64,000 bases of DNA from contig CAYJED010000002.1 of NCBI GenBank assembly GCA_964369115.1, positions 10,193 through 74,192 of the forward strand. Reading direction: 5' to 3'. Below are positions 10,364-55,602 of the stretch, piece by piece. The translations under genes and the position numbers were made by a program. Source of the DNA: an uncultured Candidatus Saccharibacteria bacterium. GTDB lineage: Bacteria > Patescibacteriota > Minisyncoccia > Phycocordibacterales > UBA5272. The first letter of the stretch is position 1. Each line of letters begins with the position of its first letter. The notes beneath the pieces were generated by a model that was not told the origin of the DNA, did no database searches, and saw only the letters and a list, made by a program, of their open reading frames with translations.

Positions 10364-11773
10364 GTGTATTGTCTTCCTATGCCTATGAAAAATCCGCTGA
10401 TCACTTTTTACAATACGAAAACAAGATCAAAAGATCTTTTTACTCCACTTACTGAGGGGGTTGTAAAAATCTATTCTTGTGGACCAACTGTTTATCACTA
10501 TGCTCACATTGGCAATCTACGAGCGTATGTCTTTGCCGACATTCTTCAGAGAACACTTAGAGCGCACAACTACAAAGTGGAGCACGTCATTAACATTACC
10601 GACGTTGGGCACCTTGTTGGGGACGGTGATGCAGGTATGGATAAGCTTGAAAAAGGTGCAGCACGCGAAGGAAAGACGGCATGGGAAATTGCATCTTTTT
10701 ATACAGACGCTTTTATGAATGACCTTGCATATCTTAATATTCCAAAAGAAAATTATTCTTTTCCAAAAGCAACAGATCATATCCCTGAACAAATCGCTCT
10801 CATTCAGACACTTGAACAAAAAGGATACACCTACAAAATTTCTGATGGCATTTATTTTGATACTTCAAAATATTTAAACTATGCAACGTTTGCCAAACTA
10901 AATCTTGAAGGACTTGCTCACGGGGCTCGTGTTACAGAAAATGAAGAGAAGAAAACTGCAACAGATTTTGCTCTATGGAAATTCTCAAACCAAGAAGAAA
11001 AGCGTCACATGGAGTGGAAATCTCCTTGGGGTAAAGGGTTTCCAGGCTGGCACATTGAATGTTCTGCAATGTCTATGAAATATCTTGGAGAAACGTTTGA
11101 TATTCATACTGGCGGTATTGACCACATTCCTGTACATCATACAAACGAAATCGCTCAAAGCGTCTGCGCAACAGGTCATCCATACGTGAACTACTGGATG
11201 CACGTTAACTTTTTAAATGACACTGAAGGGAAGATGTCTAAATCAAATGATGACTTCTTGACTCTTTGCTCTCTTATTAAAGATGGTTATGACCCTCTTG
11301 CTTATCGTTACTTTCTCCTTACAGCTCACTACAGAAAGGAGATATCCTTTTCCTATGAAGCTCTTGATGGGGCATCCATTGCTTACAAAAAGCTAAAAGA
11401 ATTTATAAGAGAGCACAAAAAGGATGATGGAGAAATTATAGAGCTCTACAAAGAAGAGATGCTTGAAGCACTCCGTAACGATCTTTCAACAGCAGAAGTT
11501 ATTGGAACTATCTGGAAAATGATCAGAGACACGACAATCGACGATAAAGATAAGGTGGCAACCATTCTTTACGTAGATACTATTCTTGGATTAAAGCTCT
11601 CACATCAAGAAAAACTACAAATTCCGGAGGAAGTGGAAATTCTTTTAGCTCAAAGAAAAAATGCAAAAGAAAACAAAGACTATCTTACCTGCGATCAGTT
11701 GCGAGAGAAAATTCACACTCTTGGTTTTACAGTAAAAGACACAAAAAACGGCCAAGAAATCGAACAGTTATAA
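10364..11773 (+). CDS. cysS: cysteinyl-tRNA synthetase
   Basis: [15 protein letters not shown] (HIGH region), KMSKS motif; start may be MKNPL at 10385. Confidence 0.9.
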
Positions 11774-25531: not shown

Positions 25532-27556
25532 CTATTTCTTTAGGAGATTAAAAAATCCCTGTTCATCCAAAACGTTACTACCAAACTTTTTAGCATCGTC
25601 ACGTTTTCCACCCCCTCCTTCGCCCGCCAAAAGATAGGAGGTATTTTTCGAAACACTTCCCGCAACTTTACCACCATTATCTTCAATAAGCTTTTTTGCC
25701 TCATCGCGCGTTAGTGTTGGAAGTGTCCCCGTAATAACAAACGTAAGACCTTCAAGTAGTACCCCTTGTTTTACTTCATACGTAATACTAAGCTCCTCGA
25801 TAAGATTTTCTACTTCTTTTTTATTTTTACTATCTGCAAAAAAATCAATAATGCTATCTGCTACTTTTTCTCCAACACCATCTATAAGAAGAAGATCTTC
25901 TTTTGTGGTAGACATAAAATCTGCCACATTCGCAAAGTGTCGAGCGATATCTTTTGCAGTCGTCTCACCAACATGACGAATACCGAGGGCAAAAATAAAT
26001 CTTGAAAAAGATACCTCTCGCGAACTTTCTATTGCTGAAATAAGATTATCAGCAGACTTCTCTCCAAACCCTGAAAGAGGTGCAATATCCTCTTTCTTAA
26101 GGTGGTAAATAGAAGTAAAAGTATCAATCAAACCGAGCCCACAAAATTCTTCGATAATACGCTCACCCATACCGTCTATATTCATCCCCTTTTTTGAAAC
26201 AAAATGAATAAGTCCTTCGAGATGTTTCGCTGGACATTCCTTATTATGGCAATACCAGGCAGCAGAAGAACTTTTACCAACATACTCTTTTACAAGCACA
26301 CTTGCACACTCTGGACACATTTTTGGCATAAAAAATGGCACTGAATCTTCTTTACGTAAATCATGAAGCACACCAAAAATCTCAGGTATAACATCCCCAG
26401 CTTTTCTAATAAGAACAGTATCACCAACTCTTACGTCCAGACGAACAATTTCCTCCTCGTTATGAAGAGTTGCACGTTTTACTGTTGAACCTGCAAGTAA
26501 AACAGGATTAAGCTCTGCTACCGGTGTCACAGCTCCAGTTCTACCAACCTGACAGGTAACAGAGAGAAGCTGTGTCGCAACCTCTTCCGCGGGAAGCTTA
26601 TAAGCAATTCCACCTCGAGGAGATTTTGCGGTATATCCGAGAGAATCCCATAACACTCTTTCGTTTATTTTAATAACAATTCCATCTATACCAAACTCTT
26701 CCTTATCTTTTCTGTCTACCCAGCTATTGTAAAACGACTGAATATCTTCAAGCGATTTGCAGATATTTTTTGAGCTGTTTACCAAGAAGCCAAGAGAAGT
26801 AAGTTCTTTAAGTTCATCTTCTTGTGTAGCATAATCACCACCCTCAATGTCATAAGCAAAAAGCTGAAGGTTACGTTTTGCCACAATACGCGCATCAAGC
26901 TGGCGCAGTGTTCCTGCTGCCAAGTTGCGTGTATTTGCATAAAGAGGAAGATTTTCATTTTCTCTTTCTTTATTAATAACCTCAAGGTCACTTTTTTTAA
27001 TCCATGCCTCACCAATCACTGTGATTGAGAGAGGTAAAGGCAAACTAAGTGGTATAGTACGTATTGTTTTTATATTTTCAGTAATATCTTCTCCAACTTC
27101 TCCATCTCCTCGCGTTGTGCCACGAACAAGTTTACCGTTTTCATATGTAAGGATAATTTTAAGTCCGTCAATTTTAAGCTCGGCAACATATGTTGGAAGA
27201 TTATGGTGTCCACTCTTTTTAAGAAGTGTTAGGTTGCGATCCTCCCAAGAGGTAAGTTCTTCAAAATTAAAAACGTTGTCAAAACTCCACTGCTTCACAT
27301 CGTGTTTAACTTTTTTAAAATGTGTAAGCGTGTGTCCTCCAACTCTTTTAGTTGGGGATGTTGCATCTTCGTATTCAGGAAACATCTCCTCAAGCAAAGC
27401 AAGCTCTCTAAGTAAAGAATCGTACGCTTCATCAGAAATTGAAGGCATATCATGCACGTGATACAACACGCGATGATACTCAAGAGACTCTCTAAGCTCG
27501 TAGATACGCTTTTGTGCAGCATTTTTATCCATACTATACAGCATAGCACAAAACAC
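25532..27556 (-). CDS. ligA: NAD-dependent DNA ligase
   Basis: Adenylation KIDG motif (AELKIDGLKI), OB, Zn finger, HhH and C-terminal BRCT regions. Confidence 0.9.
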   Translation of the reverse strand: MFCAMLYSMDKNAAQKRIYELRESLEYHRVLYHVHDMPSISDEAYDSLLRELALLEEMFPEYEDATSPTKRVGGHTLTHFKKVKHDVKQWSFDNVFNFEELTSWEDRNLTLLKKSGHHNLPTYVAELKIDGLKIILTYENGKLVRGTTRGDGEVGEDITENIKTIRTIPLSLPLPLSITVIGEAWIKKSDLEVINKERENENLPLYANTRNLAAGTLRQLDARIVAKRNLQLFAYDIEGGDYATQEDELKELTSLGFLVNSSKNICKSLEDIQSFYNSWVDRKDKEEFGIDGIVIKINERVLWDSLGYTAKSPRGGIAYKLPAEEVATQLLSVTCQVGRTGAVTPVAELNPVLLAGSTVKRATLHNEEEIVRLDVRVGDTVLIRKAGDVIPEIFGVLHDLRKEDSVPFFMPKMCPECASVLVKEYVGKSSSAAWYCHNKECPAKHLEGLIHFVSKKGMNIDGMGERIIEEFCGLGLIDTFTSIYHLKKEDIAPLSGFGEKSADNLISAIESSREVSFSRFIFALGIRHVGETTAKDIARHFANVADFMSTTKEDLLLIDGVGEKVADSIIDFFADSKNKKEVENLIEELSITYEVKQGVLLEGLTFVITGTLPTLTRDEAKKLIEDNGGKVAGSVSKNTSYLLAGEGGGGKRDDAKKFGSNVLDEQGFFNLLKK

Positions 27557-27580
27557 GTAAAAACCCTTATAGAATAAACA

Positions 27581-28222
27581 CTATTCTGAGATTGTTGTAT
27601 TTATAACGGCGCGCTCAATAGCTCCAGTGTCATTACAAGAAGAATACCCTTGAGCGATAATCTGCCTAAATGAAGGTGTTTTATTAACCGTCACTCTTGC
27701 ACATCTAAATTCCCCGCCCCCCATATTCATACGCATTCTATAGGTTACCGTTTTACCCTCTTCATCTCCCGAGAAAGGAGAATGGTATGTATAATTATCG
27801 TCACTTACTTTAAAATCAGATGTAGCTGGATTTTGGTCAAAAATAAGTGACTGAGCACACTTAATTGGATTTGGACCAGCAAGGGAAATTGGGTCAAGTG
27901 GGGGTTCTTGACTAGCACGATCATCATTAACATAATCTATTACAGCTTCAACTGAAGTCATTGCGGGGGTTGTGGTGCTACTTGGAAAAATACCTAAACC
28001 GTCTGCTGATGTATATGTATCATCGATCGCAAGAGCACAAGTAATTGCATCATCAGCTGCATAATAAGCATTTTGACTGTTTCTATACAATTTTGAAAAA
28101 TACATCTGCTTTGAAACTAATGTCATTGCACTTCCTGTAATAAAAAGAACAAGTGTTGACATAAGCATTGTGAAGGGTAGAACAAATCCTTTTTTAATTT
28201 TTTTATTGTGTAAAAAAAACAT
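27581..28222 (-). CDS. pilus-associated protein, PilX/minor-pilin-like (no canonical E5)
   Basis: N-terminal KKGFVLPFTMLMSTLVLFI hydrophobic segment resembling prepilin but lacking conserved Glu; in minor pilin cluster. Confidence 0.4.
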   Translation of the reverse strand: MFFLHNKKIKKGFVLPFTMLMSTLVLFITGSAMTLVSKQMYFSKLYRNSQNAYYAADDAITCALAIDDTYTSADGLGIFPSSTTTPAMTSVEAVIDYVNDDRASQEPPLDPISLAGPNPIKCAQSLIFDQNPATSDFKVSDDNYTYHSPFSGDEEGKTVTYRMRMNMGGGEFRCARVTVNKTPSFRQIIAQGYSSCNDTGAIERAVINTTISE

Positions 28223-28239
28223 AATGTGTCTAATATTAC

Positions 28240-28977
28240 TTATGGTTGTGCATGTATAAATCTACTTACCCTAGAAGTGTATGTGACACCATTTACCCCT
28301 TTATGTTTCACTTCTGAAATTATTTTTATATCGTCATTATATTGACTAAGCATATTACCTATATCATAAGTTGGATTATGTTCAAGGTAAACACTTCGAC
28401 TAAAGGTTTTTTTTGTTGACGGAATTGCGCCATTTGAATGAGCAGACCCTGTACACAAAAATTTTACTGTACCGTCTGGAAAAAGGTACTCGGTCACTGT
28501 ACGACAATTTTCATTGTTAGCAGGTGATCGAGATGGTGTCACGGTAATATCACCAGTCATTTGTTCATAATCAAATGTACATCCCTGTGGAACGTTATTA
28601 CCACCTGCACCTTCATTATCTCTTTCACCGTAACAAGATGGCTGACCATCTCCTGCTGCAAATTTCTCTTTAAATAATCTCCACGAGGTTTGACCATTTG
28701 TTTCTCCGACGTTTGGAGCACAATAAGCATTTTCAGGTTGTTTTTTGCACAATAAATAGATAGAATCATATTGATTTTCTATAAGCTCAATCAACTCTTC
28801 AGCTAAATACGTCGCAATGATTGAATCTTTTGTTTGACGAGAATAGGAAGAAGACTCTGTAATTACTGTAAGAGGTCCAATGATCATAATTACCATTATA
28901 GCAACTGAAGCAAGTGTTTCCAGAAGAGTAAATCCTTTAGTGAGTTGTTTATTTTTCATATATTTAACGATTATCAA
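28240..28977 (-). CDS. type IV minor pilin (prepilin N-terminal motif)
   Basis: KGFTLLETLASVAIMVIMI class III signal. Confidence 0.7.
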   Translation of the reverse strand: MIIVKYMKNKQLTKGFTLLETLASVAIMVIMIIGPLTVITESSSYSRQTKDSIIATYLAEELIELIENQYDSIYLLCKKQPENAYCAPNVGETNGQTSWRLFKEKFAAGDGQPSCYGERDNEGAGGNNVPQGCTFDYEQMTGDITVTPSRSPANNENCRTVTEYLFPDGTVKFLCTGSAHSNGAIPSTKKTFSRSVYLEHNPTYDIGNMLSQYNDDIKIISEVKHKGVNGVTYTSRVSRFIHAQP

Positions 28978-29641
28978 GCGAACGTGAAGAAACAGTTGCC
29001 TGTATATTAAAGGTAATTGGTTTTACTGTTTGTCGTTCAGATTTTGTATACCCTGAAATAAGAATATGTATGAGAGGTTGCCTAAAATCAAATAAACCTA
29101 AATAATCATTAGAGCCATCTGATGTATGTGCACCATCTACATAAAAGAGAAGTTTGGTAATGAAAACATCACTTGATGTCATTTGTAATGTAGTACTAGC
29201 CCCAACAAAAGGATATTCAATCTTAAACAAAACACCGTCTGAAATATAATACGCCACCCTATCTCTATCATCTTTCCACTCAGAACCACGAAAGATAAGA
29301 ACATCCCCTCCATTACCTGCGGCATCTGAACAGTCTTTACGTATAAGAGGTATGGAAGGGAGTGTTGTTGGATCATCTTCTCCGCAATAAAAATTTGCAC
29401 CAAATCGTACGTCGCGTGTTACAGTTTGAATAGATAAATTAATATTATCAAGTATTGATTGAGTTTCTTGTAATCGATTATTAATTGTTTGAGCATTAAA
29501 TAATGACCCTAAACTAAGAGTTGCTATCCCTGAAAAAAGACCAAGCACAACAAGAAGCTCAACAAGTGTAAATCCTTGTCTAAATCTGCTTTTTTTAAAA
29601 AATAATATGTTCATAATTGTTTCATGCTTTACACGTATCAA
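28964..29641 (-). CDS. type IV minor pilin
   Basis: QGFTLVELLVVLGLFSGIA prepilin motif; start probably MNILFF. Confidence 0.7.
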   Translation of the reverse strand: MIRVKHETIMNILFFKKSRFRQGFTLVELLVVLGLFSGIATLSLGSLFNAQTINNRLQETQSILDNINLSIQTVTRDVRFGANFYCGEDDPTTLPSIPLIRKDCSDAAGNGGDVLIFRGSEWKDDRDRVAYYISDGVLFKIEYPFVGASTTLQMTSSDVFITKLLFYVDGAHTSDGSNDYLGLFDFRQPLIHILISGYTKSERQTVKPITFNIQATVSSRSLDNR

Positions 29642-30278
29642 TTTTTTTAACTATCATCCCTGATTTATAAATCAATATTGAACGAACATATCCTTTTACA
29701 GGAGTACGCAACGAATCAAGCTGAACACACGCAATGTCATAGTTGGTTGTTTTCGAATCATTAATATAAATATTTGCATTTTGCCGTGGCCTACTAAATG
29801 AAATGGTGAGTGTTTTTAAATCAGGATCTAATTCATCGTTACATAAAAGTGGGTTAGTGCTTGTTGCTACGCAAAGCACACCAACTCTGTGACGATTAAC
29901 TGTTTTTAATAGCTCATTGTTTTCATCACCTAAACCCTGATCATAAAGACCATTTCCTATACCGATTGGATGAGTTATCGAATTATCAATTTTGTCTCTA
30001 AATTTTATAACTTCTGACGAAGTCGCAAGATCAAAGTAAACACCGGATCCACCAAAATTACCATTAACAGAAACAACGGCACTTCCTTGCAACTGCGCTT
30101 CACGTATTAAAATTTCAGTACGGTAAGCATTATCTGAAAGCGTAAGTCGCATAATTGCTTGTGGCCCACCTGACAAACTAATACCCAGAACAATAGCCAT
30201 AATTGAGATACTTACAAGAAGTTCAACTAAGGTAAACGCTTTAGCTGTTTTTCGTAAGGGAAAATAAGGAACAAGCAT
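29622..30278 (-). CDS. type IV minor pilin
   Basis: KAFTLVELLVSISIMAIVLG prepilin motif. Confidence 0.7.
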   Translation of the reverse strand: MLVPYFPLRKTAKAFTLVELLVSISIMAIVLGISLSGGPQAIMRLTLSDNAYRTEILIREAQLQGSAVVSVNGNFGGSGVYFDLATSSEVIKFRDKIDNSITHPIGIGNGLYDQGLGDENNELLKTVNRHRVGVLCVATSTNPLLCNDELDPDLKTLTISFSRPRQNANIYINDSKTTNYDIACVQLDSLRTPVKGYVRSILIYKSGMIVKKIDTCKA

Positions 30279-30293
30279 ACATACATGGTAGCA

Positions 30294-31073
30294 CTAAGCG
30301 AAAAGAAGGGCGATAGAGAATATATCTGCACCTGTGAACAACACAATAAGGAATGCTACAACAATAAACGGAACAAAAGGAATCGGTGTGCTTGTTTTAA
30401 TTTTTTTTCCAGAAAGAAAATATTTATACATAAGCCCATAAAAAGCGCCAAACCAAACGGAAAGAATGAAAACGGCGAAACCTTGCTGTACACCAAAAAA
30501 AGCTCCAACACCAAAGAAAAGAACAACATCACCAAATCCGACACCTTTTCCTTTTGTAATAAGCCAGATAATCAAAAAAGGCAGAGCAACAAAAAGAGGT
30601 GCAGACAAAGTGACCAGTGAAAAATCTTCTTGCGCTCTCATTAAAAAAACAACAAAGGAAAGTAGCGAAAAAATAGTAATAAATGAAAGTGGTATATATG
30701 AGTGCTTATTGTCGTAAAGAGCCATTGCTCCAAGCACTCCAAATAAAAGAGTATAAAAAACAAGCCAAAAAAAACTTATCATTACAGAAGCGTGCCCAAC
30801 AAGGATCACGTGATAAAGGAAAAAAAAAGAAATTCCAAATAATATTTCAACGATAAGAGATGAAACTCCGTAGTCAGTTTTGCAATATCGACATCTCCCT
30901 TTTAGCCAGATAAAAGAAACTATTGGAATAAGATCAAGAGGACGAAGTGTTTCACCACAAGAAAGACACTTACTTCTACTTTTTGTAATAGGCGCAACAT
31001 GGAGTCTAGAAACAATAACTTGAACAAAACTACCGATCGAAGCACCATAAAGAAAAGAGAGGATTGCTAACAT
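30294..31073 (-). CDS. pilD: prepilin peptidase (A24 family)
   Basis: CLSCGETL...RCRYCKT zinc-binding tetracysteine, polytopic membrane domain. Confidence 0.85.
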   Translation of the reverse strand: MLAILSFLYGASIGSFVQVIVSRLHVAPITKSRSKCLSCGETLRPLDLIPIVSFIWLKGRCRYCKTDYGVSSLIVEILFGISFFFLYHVILVGHASVMISFFWLVFYTLLFGVLGAMALYDNKHSYIPLSFITIFSLLSFVVFLMRAQEDFSLVTLSAPLFVALPFLIIWLITKGKGVGFGDVVLFFGVGAFFGVQQGFAVFILSVWFGAFYGLMYKYFLSGKKIKTSTPIPFVPFIVVAFLIVLFTGADIFSIALLFA

Positions 31074-31221
31074 GGAGTAAAATAAATAATAATAATATAT
31101 TCTTAAGTATATAGTTAAACAATAGAATTTTACACTTCATTATAAACACTTTAACGAAGCAACATTATCTTGGACAATTAATCTTAGACTAAGAGCTAAG
31201 AGAAACAGTACATAAGATTTC

Positions 31222-31252
31222 AAAAAAAAAGCGGGCAGTGCCCGCTTTTTTG
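31222..31252 (-). terminator. strong rho-independent terminator after major pilin
   Basis: aaaaaaaaagcgggcagtgcccgcttttttt. Confidence 0.85.
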
Positions 31253-31288
31253 TTTAGCTAAGATAGAAACTTCTTTTAGAAAAACAGA

Positions 31289-31987
31289 TTATTGCTGTGA
31301 AGTAACATCAAAGATACAATCTTCTACAGCGACACAAGTACTACTAGACTGTTCAGAGTAAGGAGAGACAGCTGGAAGATCATTAATTTTTGATTCGAAA
31401 TCAGATCCATTAGTAGGCACAGGACTTCCTTCTACTATAGACGCTGGAAGGCTGGATGAAGCAGCGGAGGTAAAAAGGTTAGTTCCGTTATTAACGAAAG
31501 TTGCAGTCATGAAGTTACCGTTGTACACCGCACAGAAAGGAACAGCGAGTGCGCTTGATAGGGTTGCAGAAATACAGTCACGATCAGTTTCAAGAGCTGG
31601 ACCATATACTTCAAGTTTTACACCAAAGTGATACGCAAAAATCTGATCCTGAGCACCTGTTGATGAAGCTGTATAATATGTGTAAGCAAAAGCATCACGG
31701 GCATTTGATGTAGTAGAAGCAGCAAATGTAGGAAGAAGCGGCATAAACTGAGGTGAAAGATCTTTAAGATCAATTGGATACTGAGCGGAGTTTGATTCAG
31801 CGTATTGCTCAAGAGCAAGCTGTGTTGATTTAAGTTCGGCAATCTTCTTCGCGTCACGTGCTTTTTTACGCGCACTTTGAATTGGGGCAGCAATAATAGT
31901 TGAAAGGAGACCGATAATAGCGATCACCACAAGAAGTTCGATAAGGGTGAATCCACGAACACCTGATTTTGTAAATTTGTTTGACAT
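31289..31987 (-). CDS. pilA: type IV major pilin
   Basis: RGFTLIELLVVIAIIGLLSTI canonical prepilin leader and N-terminal helix; own terminator. Confidence 0.8.
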   Translation of the reverse strand: MSNKFTKSGVRGFTLIELLVVIAIIGLLSTIIAAPIQSARKKARDAKKIAELKSTQLALEQYAESNSAQYPIDLKDLSPQFMPLLPTFAASTTSNARDAFAYTYYTASSTGAQDQIFAYHFGVKLEVYGPALETDRDCISATLSSALAVPFCAVYNGNFMTATFVNNGTNLFTSAASSSLPASIVEGSPVPTNGSDFESKINDLPAVSPYSEQSSSTCVAVEDCIFDVTSQQ

Positions 31988-32108
31988 AATATTTTTCTAT
32001 CTTTTTGTAGATACTTTAAAGTATATACCCATTATTTTATAAAACACAAGTATTAAAGATAAATTGTGTGGATAATTAAAATAGATTGTAAATAAAGGTT
32101 TTTTAAAC

Positions 32109-32140
32109 AAAAATACACATTTTACTTAATGTGTATTTTT
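32109..32140 (-). terminator. palindromic hairpin between pilC and pilA
   Basis: aaaaatacacatt-ttactt-aatgtgtattttt. Confidence 0.55.
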
Positions 32141-32168
32141 ATGTTTTGTTAAAAAAAGTAATAAAAAA

Positions 32169-33392
32169 CTAACTAATTGCATCAGTGAGAGAATACATAG
32201 GGAGAAGAATAGCAGACACAAGCACACCTACACCGACTCCCAAACTTACGATCATCGCAGGCTCAATAAGTCCAATCATTGAATCAATTGCTGTGTCGAG
32301 TTCACGTCTATAAAAGTTAGAGAGATTTTTAAGGATATAAGCAAGCTCTCCTGTTTCTTCTCCAATGTGAACCATTTGTACAAGAATATTTGGAACAAGA
32401 GGCTCTTCATATAAAGCCTTTGAAAGAGACTTTCCCGTTTGAACTTTAACAGAAACTCTACCCATCAATTGTTTATAAACACGATTCTCAACAATTGAAG
32501 TAGTAATATCGATAGACCGAACAATTGGTACACCATTTGAGAGCATGGTACTCATGTTATCTGACAAACGTTGTAAGAAAATTTTCTGAAGAAGATTATT
32601 AAGCACCGGCACTTTAATGAGATTGCTATCAACAATGTACCCTCCTTCGTCAGTTTGCGACCACTTATAAAACCAAAAACCAAGACCAAAGAGAATAGGG
32701 AAAGTAATTGGTCCATATTTTACGAAAAGATCCGAAACAAAGAGAACAATTTGTGTCACCATCGGAAGCTCAGCACCTTCCTCAGCAAACATGTTTGCCA
32801 TTTTAGGGACCACAAATGTAAGCATGCCCACCATAATTGCAAAGAATGTTCCAATAACAAATCCTGGGTAAGTAAGAGCTTTTTTGATCTTCTGGTTAAG
32901 TTCGTAGTTACGATCAAGATAGTCAGCGAGAAAAAGAAAAACTTCATTCAATTTTCCACTTTCTTCACCCGCTTTAACCATGTTAACGTAAAAATTTGAA
33001 AAGAGGTCAGGTCTACGAGACAAGGCTTCTGAAAGAGCAATACCTGACTCGATATCATCAGCAACCCCCATAATCTCTTCTTGAAGAGTCTTGTTTTCAT
33101 TTTCTTGTGCAAGAAGACGGAAGGCACGCAATGCTGACACCCCCGCCTCAAACAAGGTCGACACCTGTCGTGAAAAGAGCACCACATCTTTTGGTTTTAT
33201 CTTTTCTTTAAAAAGCTTACCTGTTGCCTGGTAAATAATATTATTTTTCTTATCTACCTTTTCTTTAACTTCTAAAATAGTAGTAATACCTTTTTTTTGA
33301 AGAACAAGAATAGCGCTATCAACAGACGTTGCTTCAACTTCCCCCTCTTCTTTGTTTCCGTTATTATTAAGCCAAGAATATTCAAAGATCAT
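32169..33392 (-). CDS. pilC: type IV pilus assembly platform protein (GspF family)
   Basis: GspF-family repeats, 3 TM segments, 407 aa. Confidence 0.85.
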   Translation of the reverse strand: MIFEYSWLNNNGNKEEGEVEATSVDSAILVLQKKGITTILEVKEKVDKKNNIIYQATGKLFKEKIKPKDVVLFSRQVSTLFEAGVSALRAFRLLAQENENKTLQEEIMGVADDIESGIALSEALSRRPDLFSNFYVNMVKAGEESGKLNEVFLFLADYLDRNYELNQKIKKALTYPGFVIGTFFAIMVGMLTFVVPKMANMFAEEGAELPMVTQIVLFVSDLFVKYGPITFPILFGLGFWFYKWSQTDEGGYIVDSNLIKVPVLNNLLQKIFLQRLSDNMSTMLSNGVPIVRSIDITTSIVENRVYKQLMGRVSVKVQTGKSLSKALYEEPLVPNILVQMVHIGEETGELAYILKNLSNFYRRELDTAIDSMIGLIEPAMIVSLGVGVGVLVSAILLPMYSLTDAIS

Positions 33393-33409
33393 AAAAAATT
33401 AACTAATTA

Positions 33410-34468
33410 TTAAAGAAGTCTATCGAAAAGTCCTCGACGGCGAGCATATGTATATGCAACATCGCGTGCAACTGTTCCCTCACGAACAAGTGAGGCGAGA
33501 TATCTATCAAGGTCAATCATTCCGTCTTTTGCACCCATTTCAATGATCATATCAATTTCGTGTACACGGTTTTCGCGTATAAGATTTGATACAGCTCCTG
33601 TATTTAAAAGAAGCTCAAAAGCAGGAACCATACCCCCTCCTGTTGTAGGAATAAGCTGCTGAGAAAGAATGCCTATAAGAGAGGATGAAAGCTGTAAGCG
33701 AATCTGGTTTTGCTGATCAGAAGGAAATGAATCGATGATACGGTTGATTGTCTGAGCAGCTGAGTTACTGTGAAGCGTCGCAAGAACAAGGTGACCTGTC
33801 TCAGCAGCAGTTACCGCTGTTGCCATAGTATCTCTATTTCTCATCTCTCCAATCATAATGACATCAAGATCTTGACGGAGGGACTGAACAAGAGCTGTGT
33901 CAAAATCACTTGTATCGGTACGAACTTCTCGTTGCTCAATAATAGATTTATCATGATCAAAACGAAATTCCGCAGGATCTTCAATGGTGAGGATATGCCG
34001 CCTAGACTCTTTGTTAATTTGCTGAATCATTGCAGCAATTGTTGTTGACTTACCCTGCCCAATTGAACCAACAACAAGAAAAAGTCCTTGGCGTTCACGG
34101 GAAACAGCTATAAGCTGCTGAGGAAGAGCGAGCTCTTCTATTGTCCTTACTCGAGGCAGTAAACGAAGGGCAATTGAAATAACCCCACGCTGAAAACATG
34201 CATTCCCTCGAAGCCTGTACTCTTTACGATGCTCGTAAGAAAAATCTAACTCTTGAGTTACTACAAAGTTAGTAAGCATTTTTTCGCCAATCATTTGACG
34301 CAAAAAACCTAGAGTGTCTTCTGGTGTGAGCTCTTTTTTTCTCGTAAGAGGGATAAGGTCTCTGTTAATACGAAGTGAAGGGAAGTGAGCTACAGTAAGG
34401 TGCAGGTCTGAACCTCCTTCCTTTACTAAGGTCATAATAAGATCGTCGAGCTCTGTTTCGTAATTCAT
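33410..34468 (-). CDS. pilT: twitching motility/retraction ATPase
   Basis: 352 aa; Walker A GSIGQGKSTTIAAMI, Asp/His boxes typical of PilT. Confidence 0.85.
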   Translation of the reverse strand: MNYETELDDLIMTLVKEGGSDLHLTVAHFPSLRINRDLIPLTRKKELTPEDTLGFLRQMIGEKMLTNFVVTQELDFSYEHRKEYRLRGNACFQRGVISIALRLLPRVRTIEELALPQQLIAVSRERQGLFLVVGSIGQGKSTTIAAMIQQINKESRRHILTIEDPAEFRFDHDKSIIEQREVRTDTSDFDTALVQSLRQDLDVIMIGEMRNRDTMATAVTAAETGHLVLATLHSNSAAQTINRIIDSFPSDQQNQIRLQLSSSLIGILSQQLIPTTGGGMVPAFELLLNTGAVSNLIRENRVHEIDMIIEMGAKDGMIDLDRYLASLVREGTVARDVAYTYARRRGLFDRLL

Positions 34469-34539
34469 ATACTAAAAAGTATAGCAAGCAAATTGCTCGA
34501 GGCAATTGTATAACTCACACATAACTTATAATTACTTTT

Positions 34540-36330
34540 TTAAAGCTCAGCAAGTTCAACAAATGGAATCTTCCCCTCCATACATTTAAGCATCGCATCT
34601 TCTTTTAGAGTTACCATTCCATTTTTACGTGCCAGCTTAAAGATCTCCTCCTCTCCTTTGTTACGTAGAATTGCTTCTTCTATTTCGTCTGTAATAGAGA
34701 GAACTTCAAAAACAGGAACACGCCCTTTAATACCTGTTGGAAACTGAGCATTCCCTTTTGCTTCATACAAAGGTCTGTCAATTTGAAATTCTTTTTTAAA
34801 TTCATCAGGAAGGTCTTCGAACTGCTTATGAACCAATTCCTTTAAAGAAGGTGTCATTTCCATTTGTTCACCGCAACTATCTGCAATACGACGAGAGAGA
34901 CGTTGACCAAGCGCAGCAATAAGAACTGGCGCAATAAGATACGACTCAATACCCATATCAAGAAGACGAGTTACCACACCAATTGATGTGTTGGTGTGGA
35001 TTGTTGAAAATACCAAGTGACCAGTAAGAGCCGCTTGAATAGCAAGCTGTGCGGTTTCACCGTCACGAATTTCTCCCACCATGATTACATCAGGGTCCTG
35101 ACGAAGGATAGAACGAAGCCCTGAAGCAAATGTATACCCAATATCAGGGAACACCTGAGACTGATTCATTCCTCCCACGTTATATTCCACAGGGTCTTCA
35201 AGTGAAACAACGTTCTTATGGTCACGATCAATTTCGTTAAGCATCGAGTAAAGCGTTGTGGTTTTACCGGATCCTGTAGGACCAGAAATAAGTACCATAC
35301 CATATGGCGCGCCGATTGCTTCACGAATATGTTTCATCTGAAGTGTAGAAAAACCAAGATCATTGAGAAGCTTTACACCTTTAATGCTGTCAAGAATACG
35401 GATTACAATCTTTTCACCATAATACCCTGGGAACGATGACACACGGTAGTCAATTTTACGATCACCAAACTTAGTACTAAATCGCCCATCTTGAGGTTTA
35501 CGCTTCTCATCAAGCTTCATAGCGCAAAGGATTTTGATACGGGCAATAAGCATCGGATGTAATTTTGCAGGGAGTGCAGCAATTTGTTCGAGGCGTCCAT
35601 CCATACGAACACGAGTACGAACAGAAAGACCGACGTGTTCTATGTGAATATCGGAAGCCGTATTATCAATAGCATAACGCAAAATAGTACTGAAAATATC
35701 AGGAATTGGGAGTTTTGCTAGATTTTTATCAAGAACACTTGATGCATCTTGAAGATCAATCTCCTCGTCACCTTCTGGACCATCTTCAAGACTGTCATCA
35801 TCTTTTGCAACATAAGAAATGATTTCATTATCCACCTTATCAGTTACACTGGCTTTTTCTTCTTGCAAATCATTTGGTGAAGTGATGCCAAAATGTTTCT
35901 TAAAGGCATCATAAGAAACGAGGTATACCTTATAGGCTTGATGTGTTGACCCGAAAAGAAACTGAAGACTTGATAGAACGTTACCATGTTCAGGATCAAC
36001 AATACCAACAAACAAAACCTCATCACGAAACTCAAGCGGAACTGCCAAAAACTGCTTAGATTGGACCACATTTATATACTTAGTAAGCTCTTTGTCGTCC
36101 GCAATATCTTCTCTGTAAATAGGGAGACCATGGAGGGTACTTCTTACTTCAGTAATTTCATCGCTTGAGATATTTTTTTTAGCGAGAAGGTCATCAACAA
36201 GAATCCCTTCTGTTGAAGAGATTGTAGCATCGATTTCTTTTGCTTCGATTTCAGTTAATTTATTTTGGCTAACAAAAAGATCAAGGAGCAACATACGGCG
36301 CGAAAGGATCTGGTCGGCCTCGAGAATCAC
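34540..36330 (-). CDS. pilB: type IV pilus assembly ATPase (GspE family)
   Basis: GPTGSGKTTTLYSML Walker A, C-terminal tetracysteine-like region; 596 aa. Confidence 0.85.
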   Translation of the reverse strand: MILEADQILSRRMLLLDLFVSQNKLTEIEAKEIDATISSTEGILVDDLLAKKNISSDEITEVRSTLHGLPIYREDIADDKELTKYINVVQSKQFLAVPLEFRDEVLFVGIVDPEHGNVLSSLQFLFGSTHQAYKVYLVSYDAFKKHFGITSPNDLQEEKASVTDKVDNEIISYVAKDDDSLEDGPEGDEEIDLQDASSVLDKNLAKLPIPDIFSTILRYAIDNTASDIHIEHVGLSVRTRVRMDGRLEQIAALPAKLHPMLIARIKILCAMKLDEKRKPQDGRFSTKFGDRKIDYRVSSFPGYYGEKIVIRILDSIKGVKLLNDLGFSTLQMKHIREAIGAPYGMVLISGPTGSGKTTTLYSMLNEIDRDHKNVVSLEDPVEYNVGGMNQSQVFPDIGYTFASGLRSILRQDPDVIMVGEIRDGETAQLAIQAALTGHLVFSTIHTNTSIGVVTRLLDMGIESYLIAPVLIAALGQRLSRRIADSCGEQMEMTPSLKELVHKQFEDLPDEFKKEFQIDRPLYEAKGNAQFPTGIKGRVPVFEVLSITDEIEEAILRNKGEEEIFKLARKNGMVTLKEDAMLKCMEGKIPFVELAEL

Positions 36331-36622
36331 TCATTGGAACTACTTCTGGGAGATCCGTAAATGACTTAAAGAGAGTTAATTCTGTAAAAGCAAAATCTTT
36401 TTTTGTAAGTGCAACTTTCTGCTTTGGGTCAACCATAACAGCACCTGCTTTTTGAAGTTTTGGACCAAAAATAGCAACATCGGCTGCAGTAAGAGGTGCT
36501 GTAGGGTTAGATGAAACACCGGAAAACATAACACCGTAAAAGAAATAGAGGCACCACCCCAATAAGCCGAGACTAATGATTCCAACAAGTAAACCTGTAA
36601 ATTTAGATGGGTTAATTTGCAT
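36281..36622 (-). CDS. small membrane-anchored pilus assembly-associated protein (PilP/PilO-like, putative)
   Basis: 113 aa, N-terminal TM, position between pilO-like and pilB. Confidence 0.35.
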   Translation of the reverse strand: MQINPSKFTGLLVGIISLGLLGWCLYFFYGVMFSGVSSNPTAPLTAADVAIFGPKLQKAGAVMVDPKQKVALTKKDFAFTELTLFKSFTDLPEVVPMSDSRGRPDPFAPYVAP

Positions 36623-36640
36623 AGTAAATAAATGTAAGAA

Positions 36641-37225
36641 TTACTTAAAGTAATACACCTTTGAAGTAACACTAATACTAAGAGCTTCCGGATCTTCTAT
36701 TTTATCAACATCACCAGACTTTTCTTCTTGGCGTTTAATGGTAACACTGTCATGAACATAAAATCTAAGATTTTTTTCATAAGCCTCAATAAATGATTTA
36801 AAAGCAGGGTACCGAGATATTAAGTTAAACGTAACAAGATATGAACCAAGATCTTTATTTTGATTTCTTTGATTTAGAACAACACCAACATTAGTTACCG
36901 CAACTCCATTTTTATTTCCAATAGTTATTATCTCATTTCGAAGCTTAATTGGATCAATCGAAGGAGGAAGCATTGTTTCAATCTTTTTTCTAAGATCACC
37001 GTCAATTTCTTTATACTGTTTTTCTGTTCTATTTATATTTTCTTCAACAGAAATAATTTTACTGAGAGTGTCTTTATACTGAGTATTTCTGTCTCTTAAC
37101 GTTACAATACTTGCTTCTGGGGTAAAAACAACTCCAGGTAAACCAGAATGGACAGGCTTAATATACCCAAGATACAAAACAACCGGGGTAATAATCATAA
37201 GAATGTTGAGTAATTTAGGTGACAT
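36641..37225 (-). CDS. PilO-like pilus assembly protein
   Basis: N-terminal TM + coiled coil + periplasmic domain; operon context. Confidence 0.5.
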   Translation of the reverse strand: MSPKLLNILMIITPVVLYLGYIKPVHSGLPGVVFTPEASIVTLRDRNTQYKDTLSKIISVEENINRTEKQYKEIDGDLRKKIETMLPPSIDPIKLRNEIITIGNKNGVAVTNVGVVLNQRNQNKDLGSYLVTFNLISRYPAFKSFIEAYEKNLRFYVHDSVTIKRQEEKSGDVDKIEDPEALSISVTSKVYYFK

Positions 37226-37230
37226 AAATT

Positions 37231-37941
37231 TTATTGAGGTGTTGATGTTGAAACTTCTGGTGGACGTCCTTCAACAAAAACAATTTGATCTGACGTCACA
37301 CCTTGAACAATTACAGGTGTTGAAACTCTTACCTTAATTGAATTTCTTGAATCAGAAATACCAGCTGTCTTTGGTTGAGGGGCAATCTTACTGTACTGAG
37401 CAAGATTAAGAGCCTCAAGCTGTTGAATAAGTGCTCTATAATTTGTTGTTACTACAGCAAAATCAACAGTATAACCAGACCCATTAACAGGTTTTTTTAA
37501 GCTAAATTCATCAAAAACAACTTGTCTTTCAACAACATCTTCAAGAAACTTAAGGGGTGAGCGCACAGAAACATACTCCTGTAAAAGTTTTTCTAAATTC
37601 TTAACTCTAGATGAAAAATTTACCATCTCTGAGATTGGGTAATCTTTAAAAGATGCGTCACGGGTTAAGATTTCCTGTTTCGTTGAAGCTATGCTTGATT
37701 TTAGGTAAGTTGAATAAACAAATAAAACAAGACTAACAAGAATAGAAAGAGATGCTATAACGAAAAGAAGGATTTGTAAGTATGCATTAACACTAATTTC
37801 CCCTCCTCTTTGCTGAACAAAGAGAAAAGGAGAACTTGAGTCTGGCGCCACACCTTGAGGTTGTGTGCCGTTTTGAACTCCTTGTATACCCTGACCAGGC
37901 ACAGGAGCTGCTTCTGATTGATTACTAAGTGAAAATGCCAT
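37231..37941 (-). CDS. PilN-like pilus assembly protein
   Basis: Single TM (LQILLFVIASLSILVSLVLFVY) followed by coiled coil; operon context. Confidence 0.5.
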   Translation of the reverse strand: MAFSLSNQSEAAPVPGQGIQGVQNGTQPQGVAPDSSSPFLFVQQRGGEISVNAYLQILLFVIASLSILVSLVLFVYSTYLKSSIASTKQEILTRDASFKDYPISEMVNFSSRVKNLEKLLQEYVSVRSPLKFLEDVVERQVVFDEFSLKKPVNGSGYTVDFAVVTTNYRALIQQLEALNLAQYSKIAPQPKTAGISDSRNSIKVRVSTPVIVQGVTSDQIVFVEGRPPEVSTSTPQ

Positions 37942-37953
37942 GAGGTACTACGT

Positions 37954-39021
37954 TTATGAAATTAATTTTTTTAGAGCACACCCAAGTGCAACAGCATAAC
38001 TTGGACCAACTCTCTCCATCATTTCTGACAAAAAATCAGGAACAACAACTTGTTCAAATGGGGTGACTACTCGTCCTGCAATGTGCACTGTTTTACTGTA
38101 CACACTTATAAGACTTGGTACACGTGCACCACCCCCTGTTAAAATTATTCCTTCTATAGTTTGATTATACTTTCTTTCGTACATTAGGGATAGTCTTGCG
38201 ATCTCACCAAACAGTGGATAACTGGAAAGCTCTAACACGTCCTTAAGATAAGGATTAGAAGAATCACCTTCATACCCAAACACTCTCTTAGACTCTTCAG
38301 CTGTGTCGATAGTAACAGAGAGTGCTCTAGAAATTTGCATAGTCCCCTCTTGCGAACCTCTACTAATAACATGCATATCAAGCACTATCCCCTGATACAC
38401 AACAGAAAGCACAGTTGAAAGTGAGCCGATATCTACATACATTACCATTTTATGTGTGTGTGGTGGTGAACTTCTCAAAAGAGAGTACCCATGAATCTCG
38501 TACTCAACATTCTTTAATTCCAGTTTTTGAGAAATAGCAGCAGATGAAGTGAGAGCAGAATTATTTACAGCAGCAAGAACCACACTGATCATCTTTTCAT
38601 CGTTAATAAACTTAACGGTTTGGGGAATATGCCACCAGTCCATCTGAACTTCAGTAAGGGGAATTGGAATATACTTACGAGCCTCTATGGGCATCATAGT
38701 TCTCAATTCATCGTCAGACACTTTTGGCACATTTACCAAAGAAACAAAGGCAGCTGTTGGGTCAATCGCAATAACAGCATCTCGTGCGGTCACTTTTGCT
38801 TCCTTAAACAAATCCTGTACAGCTTCTACAAGCTTTTCCTCTCCAAGATGGACTCCTTGTCCAATCTTTAATCCGCCATAAGGTCCAAGAGCAACTTCAC
38901 CATAGGTATCAAGAACAATTCTATTTTTTTCCTTACGAAGCTGAACCACTTTCACAGAAGAAGCTCCGACATCGAGGCCGATCGCTTGTCCTAATTCTTC
39001 TTTCTTAAAAAAGTTAAGCAT
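37954..39021 (-). CDS. pilM: type IV pilus assembly protein PilM (actin-like ATPase)
   Basis: IGLDVGASSVKVVQL actin-fold N-terminus, 355 aa. Confidence 0.8.
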   Translation of the reverse strand: MLNFFKKEELGQAIGLDVGASSVKVVQLRKEKNRIVLDTYGEVALGPYGGLKIGQGVHLGEEKLVEAVQDLFKEAKVTARDAVIAIDPTAAFVSLVNVPKVSDDELRTMMPIEARKYIPIPLTEVQMDWWHIPQTVKFINDEKMISVVLAAVNNSALTSSAAISQKLELKNVEYEIHGYSLLRSSPPHTHKMVMYVDIGSLSTVLSVVYQGIVLDMHVISRGSQEGTMQISRALSVTIDTAEESKRVFGYEGDSSNPYLKDVLELSSYPLFGEIARLSLMYERKYNQTIEGIILTGGGARVPSLISVYSKTVHIAGRVVTPFEQVVVPDFLSEMMERVGPSYAVALGCALKKLIS

Positions 39022-54082: not shown

Positions 54083-54223
54083 TTACTTCTTTGATGTCTT
54101 CTTAACAGCTTTCTTTGCAACTTTTTTTACTGCTTTCTTTGCTACCTTCTTAGGTGCAGCCTTCTTAACAGCTTTCTTTGCAACTTTTTTTACTGCTTTC
54201 TTGGCAGCTTTTTTTACTGGCAT
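54083..54223 (-). CDS. tiny lysine/alanine-rich basic protein with KKAAKKAV repeats (histone H1/Hc1-like)
   Basis: MPVKKAAKKAVKKVAKKAVKKAAPKKVAKKAVKKVAKKAVKKTSKK (46 aa); contains ~45-nt internal tandem duplication. Confidence 0.5.
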   Translation of the reverse strand: MPVKKAAKKAVKKVAKKAVKKAAPKKVAKKAVKKVAKKAVKKTSKK

Positions 54224-54410: not shown

Positions 54411-54466
54411 TAGTTAATAGTTAATAGTTAATAGTTAATAGTTAATAGTTAATAGTTAATAGTTCC
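54411..54466. repeat. heptanucleotide tandem repeat (TAGTTAA) x ~7.5
   Basis: tagttaatagttaatagttaat... directly read. Confidence 0.9.
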
Positions 54467-54535
54467 TCTGCTTATAGTAAAAGTGTAGCCGAGCTAAAAG
54501 TAAGAGAGCAAGTAATTTAATTTAAATATAAAAAT

Positions 54536-54566
54536 GAAAAAGCCCCGCACGGAGTACCGTGCGGGA
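54536..54566 (-). terminator. GC-rich rho-independent terminator of GC-rich island gene
   Basis: minus strand: gtcccgcacgg-tact-ccgtgcggggc followed by tttttcatttt. Confidence 0.75.
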
Positions 54567-54627
54567 CAAGGACTAAGTCCAAAGGGTCCAAGTGCTAATT
54601 GAGACCTAAGTGAACACATCCTCAGTG

Positions 54628-55254
54628 CTAACCTGCAAGCACGGCAGACGGGCGGTTGGCGTCCCACTCGACGTCCAACCAAGTGTAGCGCCAGCGCCAC
54701 CTGCCATCGCTCCAGAACAAGTCCAGGACGTAGCGGCCGCCGCCCGAGTGCTGCAGAATGGTTCCGTCGAAGAACACGTACGTGGTGTTGCCGTTGGTGG
54801 GTTGCTTCCACGCTTCGGGGATGAGGTGTTGGTTTTCCCAGAGGGTCTGAAACACCTTCGCATCGAGGCGAATGTCGCCAGATGCGATGAGGCGTTTCAG
54901 CTTCTCATTACCGACCACCGTATTTTCGCGGCCCTTCAGCGTCGTTTTGAAGCTGACCTTCGCCAGGTCCACTTCGGTGAGCTTGAGGGAACGCTTGTCT
55001 TCCTCGACGATGGACCAGCCGTTACCGATGAAGGCGACGGGGTCGAAAGCGGAGGTACGGTCGACAGTGATGACCTTCGGAACGCCTGAGATGACACGTC
55101 CGCCGTTCTTGAGGAAGGCGGTGAACTCACGTCCTGCGTCCTTCGGGTTGTCGATGACCTTCTGCAGGATGGAAGCATTGACCGCATCCCAATCCGCATT
55201 GTTCATCAGAATACCGATGGCGTTGAGAACCTGACCTTGTGAGGACTTGTTCAT
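54628..55254 (-). CDS. hypothetical protein encoded in ~58% GC island (foreign composition)
   Basis: Start MNKSSQ with aggaga SD 7 nt upstream; balanced amino-acid composition vs Ala/Arg-rich antisense frames; C-terminal WSDGRWRWRYTWLDVEWD; no family recognised. Confidence 0.55.
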   Translation of the reverse strand: MNKSSQGQVLNAIGILMNNADWDAVNASILQKVIDNPKDAGREFTAFLKNGGRVISGVPKVITVDRTSAFDPVAFIGNGWSIVEEDKRSLKLTEVDLAKVSFKTTLKGRENTVVGNEKLKRLIASGDIRLDAKVFQTLWENQHLIPEAWKQPTNGNTTYVFFDGTILQHSGGGRYVLDLFWSDGRWRWRYTWLDVEWDANRPSAVLAG

Positions 55255-55548
55255 TTGGGTATCTCCTAAGGATTGGCTGACCACGCGTAGAAGCGTAGCT
55301 TGACCGTGCTAGAGGGCTCAAACAAGAGTTTGTTTACCATAGCTTCAAATCTACAATCGCAAGGATTGTGAAACTTAAAGCTAAGGTAAACACAAGTTAA
55401 GTATATTCAAAGAACTCCTATACTATATAATATAGCACATTTGTACATAAAAGTCAATAGCCTAATCTAACAAACCATTAAGAAACTAAGAAGCACTGAT
55501 TTACAATGATTCTATAAAAATACAAGATTTTTTATTCAAAGAACATGA

Positions 55549-55581
55549 TAAGCGTGCGACACCGAAGGTGTCGCACGCTTA
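55549..55581. repeat. GC-rich palindromic hairpin (taagcgtgcgacacc-gaa-ggtgtcgcacgctta)
   Basis: Near-identical stem to hairpin at 58463-58490 in inverted loop orientation. Confidence 0.7.
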
Positions 55582-55602
55582 CTATATGTTGCTTATTAAC
55601 TA

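Follow-up and report, generated by a model that had tools for sequence, protein, structure and literature searches.

A GC-rich single-gene island in a Candidatus Saccharibacteria contig resembles the target cassette of a diversity-generating retroelement

The DNA analyzed here, called the window, is a stretch of 64,000 nucleotides (nt) from an uncultured Candidatus Saccharibacteria bacterium (contig CAYJED010000002.1), in which an AT-rich background is interrupted by a GC-rich island with a single gene for a protein of 208 amino acids (aa). Judged from its sequence and from the genes that accompany its relatives, this gene is the variable-protein (target) gene of a Patescibacteria-type diversity-generating retroelement (DGR). 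The assignment is made because the loci of its relatives contain a template repeat (TR), the accessory gene bAvd, and a reverse transcriptase (RT) gene of the RVT_1 family, together with mismatches between the TR and the variable region (VR) of the target that are almost entirely confined to adenines. The window holds the target module alone, without the nearby RT, TR, and Avd of a complete DGR. Taken as a whole, the account favored here, in which the island is a complete DGR target unit, possibly serviced in trans, with an intrinsic high GC content and the properties of an exchangeable cassette, is given an even chance of being correct.

To our knowledge, DGRs are the only system of targeted protein hypermutation in prokaryotes. 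They are especially dense in Patescibacteria; the hosts are uncultured, and target recognition, expression, and protection are poorly understood. The locus described here shows that a target gene can stand alone as a self-contained cassette that varies between strains, with no diversifier beside it.

The 208-aa protein and 44 members of its family gave no meaningful match in Pfam, PADLOC, PHROGs, or the sequences of the PDB, and PADLOC returned 0 families at E ≤ 1 for the window protein. A word-indexed search retrieved 345 homologues, and a profile search of 1.84 billion cluster representatives gave 2,847 matches at E ≤ 1e-3 (395 at ≤ 1e-30), in which residues ~58-209 form the conserved core. 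The named homologues are almost all from Patescibacteria. P0004, P0049, P0052, P0008, and P0010 share one arrangement with fixed spacing: downstream of the gene come a ~130-nt direct repeat that duplicates its 3' end, bAvd (PF22296), which lies on the strand opposite to the target gene, and then the RVT_1 reverse transcriptase gene. The TR of the relatives is 126 to 133 nt long and is located ~330 nt downstream of the target gene, and TR, bAvd, and RVT_1 follow the gene in about half of the related loci. When TR and VR of relatives were compared, 22 of 23, 15 of 15, and 18 of 21 mismatches fell at TR adenines, and mismatches similarly concentrated at adenines (e.g., 19 of 19) were found in about 30 loci altogether. 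The adenine bias between TR and VR was upheld when tested, as was the linkage of the gene to RT and Avd in a broader sample. A reading made earlier from the sequence only (the sequence-only reading) had suggested a defense, anti-defense, or toxin gene; neither the empty PADLOC, Pfam, and PHROGs searches nor the context of the relatives, which is that of a DGR variable-protein gene, bears this out.

The window protein shares 78 to 80% aa identity with P0004, P0008, and P0010, each with TR, bAvd, and RVT_1 behind it, and the window DNA is 83% identical to complete DGR loci over 896 nt (55460-54567), including the promoter, the leader, and the 3' block. In the protein alignment, residues 1 to 165 are conserved, and residues 166 to 208 alternate between invariant and hypervariable columns. 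Between loci L094 and L095, whose cassettes are 98.7% identical, the nonsynonymous divergence (dN) of the VR is 0.26 and its synonymous divergence (dS) is 0.04, with a dN of 0 in the scaffold. The scaffold of the window gene differs from that of L001 with a dN of 0.08 and a dS of 0.42 (dN/dS of about 0.19), and by these rates the target scaffold is under purifying selection.

The TRs of L001, L002, and L003 align without gaps to window positions 54762-54634, with 71 to 76% identity, and nowhere else in the window. The window VR has a base other than adenine at 21 of the 37 columns where the TRs of the relatives have adenine; non-adenine columns differ too, because the TRs compared are foreign and not cognate. 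In this respect, the window VR has the look of a family TR sequence that has undergone diversification. Its end, ...CCGTCTGCCGT.CT.GCA, is conserved, with VR equal to TR in the relatives, and is followed by the 60-nt 3' block and a hairpin. In the relatives, TR RNA is copied with adenine-specific errors, and the cDNA replaces the final ~130 nt of the gene, that is, the VR. Such overwriting randomizes about 15 to 20 AAC-type codons in the C-terminal beta-rich domain, with the scaffold staying constrained.

Bacteria of the candidate phyla radiation (CPR) carry DGRs, described as a 'CPR set' with the unclassified VR classes UVR1-6 (Wu et al. 2018, PMC5758913), and the CPR/Patescibacteria DGRs constitute 'DGR clade 2' (Roux et al. 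2021, PMC8144416). As in the DGR variable proteins BPP-1 Mtd, Treponema TvpA, and nanoarchaeal AvpA and in those of CPR DGRs, the VR occupies the 3'-terminal ~130 nt of the gene. The relatives further share with CPR and other DGRs a TR rich in AAC codons, adenine-specific TR/VR differences, and adjacent bAvd and RVT_1, and the massive diversification of the VR over a conserved scaffold is that of DGR targets.

The island is a complete transcription unit, made up of promoter, structured leader, coding sequence (CDS), 3' block, and terminator. Its parts and the limits of the strain polymorphism described below are as follows:

55429..55457, minus strand: sigma-70-like promoter (TTGACT, 17 nt, TG, TATATT; 10 of 12 matches, extended -10)
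55300..55415, minus strand: structured 5' leader RNA, with the GTTCTTTGAATATACTTAACTTGTG motif at 55415-55391, the hairpin at 55392-55331, CCCTCTAGCA, and a small hairpin
55262..55267, minus strand: Shine-Dalgarno AGGAGA, 8 nt before the ATG, read from the sequence
54628..55254, minus strand: CDS of the 208-aa DGR-type target protein, with scaffold residues 1-165 and the VR-encoded C terminus 166-208
54634..54762, minus strand: VR, homologous to the TRs of related DGRs
54568..54627, minus strand: conserved 3' block, GCACTGAGG...TTCACTTAGGTCTC...GGACCCTTTGGACTTAGTCCTTG, between the stop codon and the terminator
54536..54567, minus strand: intrinsic terminator, with an 11-bp GC-rich stem GTCCCGCACGG-TACT-CCGTGCGGGGC at 54567-54542 and a T-run
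54445..55418, minus strand: strain-polymorphic segment, holding the window-type cassette here and a 946-nt cassette in L177 and L182
54409..54464, no strand given: (AATAGTT)x8 tandem array, the right-hand junction of the cassette polymorphism

The open reading frame (ORF) at 54628-55254 (starting MNKSSQ, with AGGAGA ahead of it), the GC-rich hairpin, and a heptamer array had all been noted in the sequence-only reading and are present, with corrections. The ORF lies on the minus strand; the hairpin at 54567-54542 is an intrinsic terminator on the minus strand, with its T-run after the stem; and the array reported as (TAGTTAA)n is, with a 2-nt shift, (AATAGTT)x8 with 100% matches. Homology to the DGR-complete L001 and L095 has its left limit at 55460, and the same type of promoter is found upstream of the relatives. 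On the other side, homology stops at 54567. What comes after the terminator is a conserved spacer, then TR, Avd, and RT, in the DGR-complete relatives, but unrelated AT-rich DNA and the heptamer array in the window. The conserved unit thus exceeds the GC-rich part: its limits are the promoter (55460) and the terminator (54542), and it takes in the AT-rich leader hairpin. The 60-nt 3' block is family specific, is kept in orphans as well as in complete DGRs, and is predicted to be structured together with the terminator (z = -4.6). By analogy with BPP-1, where the initiation of mutagenic homing (IMH)/stem-loop region has a similar position, the 3' block may be a target-recognition element. In complete loci, the ~280-nt spacer from the target terminator to the TR is 99% identical between L001 (6680-6957) and L094/L095 (8680-8957) and is conserved in L005 (~4330-4594); it may represent an RNA element of the DGR that precedes the TR.

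The GC content of the island (54533-55330) is 0.564, compared with a mean of 0.376 (standard deviation [SD] of 0.029, maximum of 0.446) in 1,232 other 798-nt segments of the window, which gives a z of 6.4. The flanks have a GC content of 0.31, and the composition switches within ~50 to 100 nt at both ends, so that the ~800-bp GC-rich island in ~38% GC DNA and its abrupt junctions are as they had been described. Junctions of this kind, with a tandem repeat on one side, could also arise if a GC-rich fragment of another organism had been spliced into an AT-rich contig during assembly, as the sequence-only reading had considered. Such a chimera has next to no probability: 11 Logan and JGI contigs from independent runs span window positions 55974-54435 and both junctions with 99 to 100% identity, L181 and L183 also reproduce both junctions, which brings the independent assemblies (Logan, JGI, and NCBI) to at least 13, and the AT-rich promoter and leader belong to the same conserved unit in the relatives. 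The short-read contigs all terminate within either the heptamer array or the 12-nt repeats that make up a neighboring lysine/alanine (K/A)-rich ORF, which is the behavior expected at repeats.

A GC island in an AT-rich genome, flanked by a structured leader and a structured 3' untranslated region (UTR), might likewise be taken for a structured noncoding RNA with an incidental ORF. The probability of this is negligible, given that the scaffold evolves with a dN/dS of 0.19 (dS, 0.42), that the GC excess sits mainly at third codon positions, that thousands of protein homologues keep length and frame, that the AlphaFold2 (AF2) model is confident, and that Rfam has no match.

The GC contents of the three codon positions of the target gene are 0.56, 0.41, and 0.77, and the GC content at third positions (GC3) of the neighboring SecA, MurF, SET, and ValRS genes is 0.25 to 0.31. 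The target gene is the only extreme GC3 outlier of the 64 nonoverlapping ORFs of the window (mean, 0.29; SD, 0.09). The codon-adaptation check that the sequence-only reading had proposed gave the island gene the lowest value in the window, 0.37, against a median of 0.69, and the genome's rarest synonyms make up 55% of its codons, compared with 19% in other genes. The most atypical codon usage of the window, in a cassette that is mobile and polymorphic and whose relatives adjoin restriction-modification, GmrSD, and SocA-type genes, is what would be seen if a single defense, anti-defense, or toxin gene had recently been acquired from a high-GC donor and had not yet ameliorated. This is nevertheless very improbable, since the homologues are overwhelmingly in low-GC Patescibacteria, PADLOC, Pfam, and PHROGs give no match, and the same deviation recurs throughout the family.

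In 25 complete loci (L001-L082), GC3 is 0.66 for the target, 0.37 for Avd, 0.375 for RT, and 0.374 for host ORFs. In 34 RT-seeded metagenome loci (L097-L176), an independent set in which TR and VR were detected de novo, the values are ~0.65 for the target and ~0.42 to 0.46 for RT. The GC3 of the target exceeds that of the RT in 32 of these 34 loci, including 23 of the 24 whose target is not recognizably of this family, and in 67 of 76 loci it is above the GC3 of the host. RT GC3 follows host GC3 (rho of 0.76), and target GC3 barely does so (rho of 0.28). Within one 98.7%-identical mobile block, target GC3 is 0.80, whereas that of Avd and RT is 0.32 to 0.34, and target GC3 stays high between clades whose synonymous sites are saturated. 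On these comparisons, the high GC content is a synonymous, clade-wide trait of DGR targets and does not reflect donor ancestry. Amelioration logic is inapplicable, because the deviation is limited to one gene of a mobile cassette and is kept across deep divergence; it is in this that the locus differs from compositional genomic islands, with which it shares abrupt GC and codon deviation, mobility, and patchy distribution. Of the proposal of a horizontally acquired single cassette, the discreteness, the mobility, and the foreign-looking codon usage stand, and the recent import from a high-GC phylum does not; the cassette, which was to be sought in high-GC phyla, belongs to a family found mainly in low-GC Patescibacteria. 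Neither recent horizontal gene transfer nor misassembly, then, has to lie behind a GC island of one gene in a CPR genome.

Distant paralogues of the family (39 to 43% identity) occur in metagenome-assembled genomes (MAGs) of Syntrophus and 'delta proteobacterium' (L046-L049, L053, L054, L056, L064, and L066). Each genome has several of them, none with an RT closer than 10 kb, and their GC3 lies below that of the host (0.40 to 0.46 versus 0.51 to 0.64), which is the opposite of the pattern in Patescibacteria.

Several explanations of the GC3 enrichment were tested and found no support. Translational selection for high GC3 does not fit ribosomal-protein genes with a GC3 of 0.26 to 0.40 and a target that uses the rarest codons. 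Avoidance of adenine on the sense strand, as a protection from RT errors, does not fit the about equal depletion of adenine and thymine at third positions (0.60 and 0.64 relative to RT). A gradient of conversion tracts from the VR was not steep, with GC3 values along the gene of 0.68, 0.78, 0.76, 0.78, and 0.84. Special synonymous constraint could not be demonstrated either: in one cassette pair dS is 0.27 for the target, 0.43 for RT, and 0.05 for Avd, which looks like mosaic recombination. As candidate causes, selection could act on the stability or the structure of the mRNA, translation of the hypervariable protein could be deliberately slow, or homing or recombination could bring with it a GC-biased repair. 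Selection on the target mRNA or its translation is favored over mutation bias with low confidence. No mention of a target-specific codon bias was found in the searchable DGR literature.

The target genes are also preceded by a characteristic RNA. The family leader has three elements: a 5' motif, GTTCTTTrA..AACTTGYG, right after the -10 box, a long hairpin (55392-55331 in the window), and CYCTAGCA. The folding of the window leader has a z of -4.3 (RNAfold). In an alignment of 20 leaders, compensatory double changes were found in 16 of 21 pairs, and 93% of the alignment cells were paired, compared with 72% in shuffles (0 of 500 reached the observed value) and 36 to 46% in slid controls. Two of the pairs are predominantly G-U, and the structure is therefore strand specific, i.e., an RNA structure. 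A covariance model (R1) has a single match in the window (55415-55300, 65 bits, E = 2e-9) and also matches ~60 related loci (e.g., L001 5842-5957, L025 9884-9991, and L135 3386-3493 and 6754-6864), in every case in the sense orientation and just upstream of the target gene. These targets include orphans, second targets, and members of other protein families. One low-GC3 subclade (L009, L010, and L014-L017) is without the leader. This leader hairpin, supported by covariation, marks the target genes of this DGR clade.

Rfam 15 contains no family for the leader or for the DGR spacer. RNA motifs associated with RTs have been reported as RT-1 to RT-19, of which RT-10 is the TR-RT spacer of BPP-1 (Weinberg et al. 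2017, PMC5737381). The leader resembles them as a covariation-supported RNA tied to DGR loci. Unlike RT-10-type motifs, it is located in the 5' UTR of the target and not in the TR-RT spacer, and it persists in orphans. Enrichment of target GC3 over that of the gene's own Avd and RT and a conserved leader hairpin both set this clade apart from the DGR targets described so far, and neither was found described in the literature searched.

The module appears in different surroundings and alternates with another one. A copy 83% identical to that of the window sits in complete DGR cassettes in unrelated contexts, and a 3.85-kb block with target, TR, Avd, RT, a TPR protein, and a 65-aa ORF is 98.7% identical between L094 (7682-11527) and L095 (7682-11526), whose contexts are otherwise unrelated (also L001, 5670-8456). 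Neighbors of this block are restriction-modification genes, a ResIII helicase gene, and an HTH_17 gene. In a near-identical strain, L177 (GCA_013558375.1), the 6,058 nt that extend from the heptamer array across SecA and MurF are 100% identical to the window, and ValRS and SET are 97.4% identical, yet window positions 55418-54445 are replaced by an unrelated 946-nt segment (1544-2489) that encodes a 199-aa protein. The same allele lies beside a window-type SET gene in L182 (GCA_020047435.1, ~1335-2287). The 199-aa protein shows no homology to the window protein (hhalign probability, 0.2%); it has homologues (E = 1e-13 to 1e-7) among the VR-bearing targets in the complete DGRs L165, L170, L171, L113, and L028, and the GC3 of its gene is 0.58. 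The left junction of the swap is the predicted transcription start, just past a shared promoter, and the right junction is the heptamer array. Two different orphan DGR-type targets thus alternate at one site in near-identical strains.

These observations support a module that behaves as an exchangeable cassette, mobile either horizontally or by recombination. Two unrelated cassettes at one site, with a shared promoter and a repeat array, recall integron cassettes and the expression loci of antigenic variation. Unlike in those systems, no integrase, attC-like site, or archive of silent copies is seen in the window, and only two alleles were observed. The exchange may proceed by homologous recombination through the flanks.

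Searches for a diversifier in the 64-kb window were negative: tblastn with three family RTs gave a best E of 0.35, tblastn with three bAvd proteins gave nothing below an E of 0.7, and in blastn searches for a TR the window VR matched only itself and foreign TRs matched only the VR. About half of the 78 related reference-genome loci also have no RT within 10 kb. In L008 (TR, 10867-10996) and L025, the target, the spacer, and a TR with adenine-only mismatches are kept while Avd and RT are missing, and therefore all intermediate states exist. A GIY-YIG-like ORF of 80 aa comes after the TR of L025 (10996-11121 and 11247-11489).

Such a decay series, from the complete DGR through TR only to target only, would also be expected if the window cassette were a frozen relic, left without a servicing DGR when the TR-Avd-RT half was deleted or when the module was copied alone. 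The lack of a diversifier within 64 kb agrees with a relic, and so does the fact that CPR DGRs mostly have one adjacent target (PMC5758913). A relic is plausible, although we rate it clearly below an even chance, in view of the conservation of promoter, leader, 3' block, and intact VR frame, the existence of remote targets in the family, the clustering on TR-adenine columns of strain differences that arose after the orphan arrangement, and the retention of two different orphan cassettes at the same site. Were it a relic, the protein would work with a fixed C terminus or drift.

Servicing in trans is made plausible by comparisons among the relatives. L029, L035, and L135 have a second target with its own leader, separately transcribed and located 2.6 to 9 kb from the single TR, to which 14 of 14, 23 of 24, and 25 of 26 mismatches, respectively, fall at adenines. 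In the Taylorbacteria MAG MHRY01, the RT-linked target L076 (399-806), located 3.6 kb from the RT, and the orphan L081 (5866-6357) are on different contigs. A TR is not detectable in L076, so L081 was compared with it VR to VR by codon position: the 18 differences between the VRs are all at codon positions 1 and 2 of NNC/NNT codons, none of them synonymous, and 109 of 327 sites differ in the upstream halves. These VRs show the pattern of concerted evolution by one TR. The N-terminal halves of L076 and L081 are unrelated, as in domain shuffling onto a common VR domain.

VR genes without an adjacent RT are known elsewhere, such as the seven extra targets of Treponema denticola, and 45 of 372 DGRs were reported to have 73 nonadjacent targets (Wu et al. 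2018, PMC5758913). The second targets of the present family, whether on the same or another contig as the TR, share with them differences that are adenine-only or restricted to codon positions 1 and 2. Remote targets at >100 kb have been reported only outside CPR DGRs (PMC5758913), and the window differs from the known cases in that its cognate TR and RT were not found. Orphan or remote DGR targets are thus of a known kind; what makes this locus of further interest is that GC3 sets targets apart from their partner genes across the clade, that a leader RNA is specific to targets, and that the cassette is swapped between strains.

The window strain can also be compared with that of P0001. The two strains differ by ~1.3% genome-wide and have the orphan arrangement in common. 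Their VRs differ at 4 sites, of which 3 to 4 are on TR-adenine columns versus 0.48 expected, and the differences include an AC>GT double change within one codon. All cis elements, i.e., promoter, leader, 3' block, and VR frame, are intact in the window. We consider it marginally more probable than the opposite that the window cassette is still a substrate of a DGR elsewhere in the genome, as a remote target.

The AF2 model of the target protein has a mean confidence (pLDDT) of 85 for the full protein and 94 for residues 58-208, and predicts an N-terminal helical segment and, after it, an alpha/beta domain in which the VR encodes the last strands. No signal peptide, membrane segment, or Pfam domain is evident in the sequence. 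By analogy with other DGR targets, the protein could be a small binding scaffold with a hypervariable surface and a ligand-binding role.

Several points speak against the favored account. Foldseek searches with the model against PDB and BFVD gave no significant match (E > 0.4); C-type-lectin-like domains recur weakly, with template modeling (TM) scores of 0.3 to 0.47, and this fold is not confirmed. Unlike known DGR variable proteins, the family has neither a sequence match nor a significant fold match to the C-type-lectin or Ig type. The excess on adenine columns consists of 4 substitutions (P of about 0.01 to 0.002) and could result from ordinary positive selection. No TR, Avd, or RT was found for the source organism within the ~80-kb metagenome contig that was covered. 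A scan of metagenome contigs for the predicted TR pattern TGGNNCGCCNNCNNCCCGTCTGCCGTGCTTGCA gave 0 matches; the scan also missed a JGI contig known to bear the VR, and the strain is therefore probably absent from the scanned collection. Finally, a 15-billion-protein collection contains only two VR alleles of the strain group, one of them identical in 10 samples, which would also be seen with a relic and argues for rare or no ongoing diversification, and CPR DGRs usually have one adjacent target (PMC5758913).

A more general proposal is that the target of Patescibacteria DGRs is an autonomous, exchangeable expression cassette, with a conserved promoter, a covarying leader hairpin, a CDS recoded to GC-rich rare codons, and a 3' recognition block, that can occupy any genomic site and be swapped at a fixed site between strains, with TR-Avd-RT acting in trans and with GC recoding and leader functionally required for hypermutation or for the safe expression of a hypervariable protein. 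We regard this generalization as unlikely. If it were true, neither the recoding toward GC nor the leader would be an accident of history; they could bound the homing tract, stabilize or gate the mRNA, or slow translation for the folding of variants. The target-only synonymous GC enrichment and the 5'-UTR hairpin are markers by which orphan or remote DGR targets can be searched for in metagenomes, and both give mechanistic handles, e.g., recoding of the target or mutation of the leader in DGR systems reconstituted in Escherichia coli.

Other features lie around the cassette. A 16-bp AT-rich hairpin (54413-54379) follows the heptamer array, and a strong bidirectional terminator hairpin of 15 to 16 bp (55549-55582) separates the SET-domain gene from the promoter of the cassette. 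In the interval from the cassette to secA, a 46-aa lysine/alanine-repeat ORF (MPVKKAAKKAVKKVAKKAVKK..., 54086-54223, minus strand) is built of about nine 12-nt units and resembles a histone-H1-like basic peptide; contigs also end there. Farther away, the window contains a type IV pilus/pseudopilin cluster (~27500-39000; PilB/T/C/M-like, including several prepilins of the FTLVELL type), and tRNA genes are present at five positions (18400, 21286, 22183, 60774, and 61560). The pilus cluster and the tRNAs are ordinary Patescibacteria content, unrelated to the cassette.

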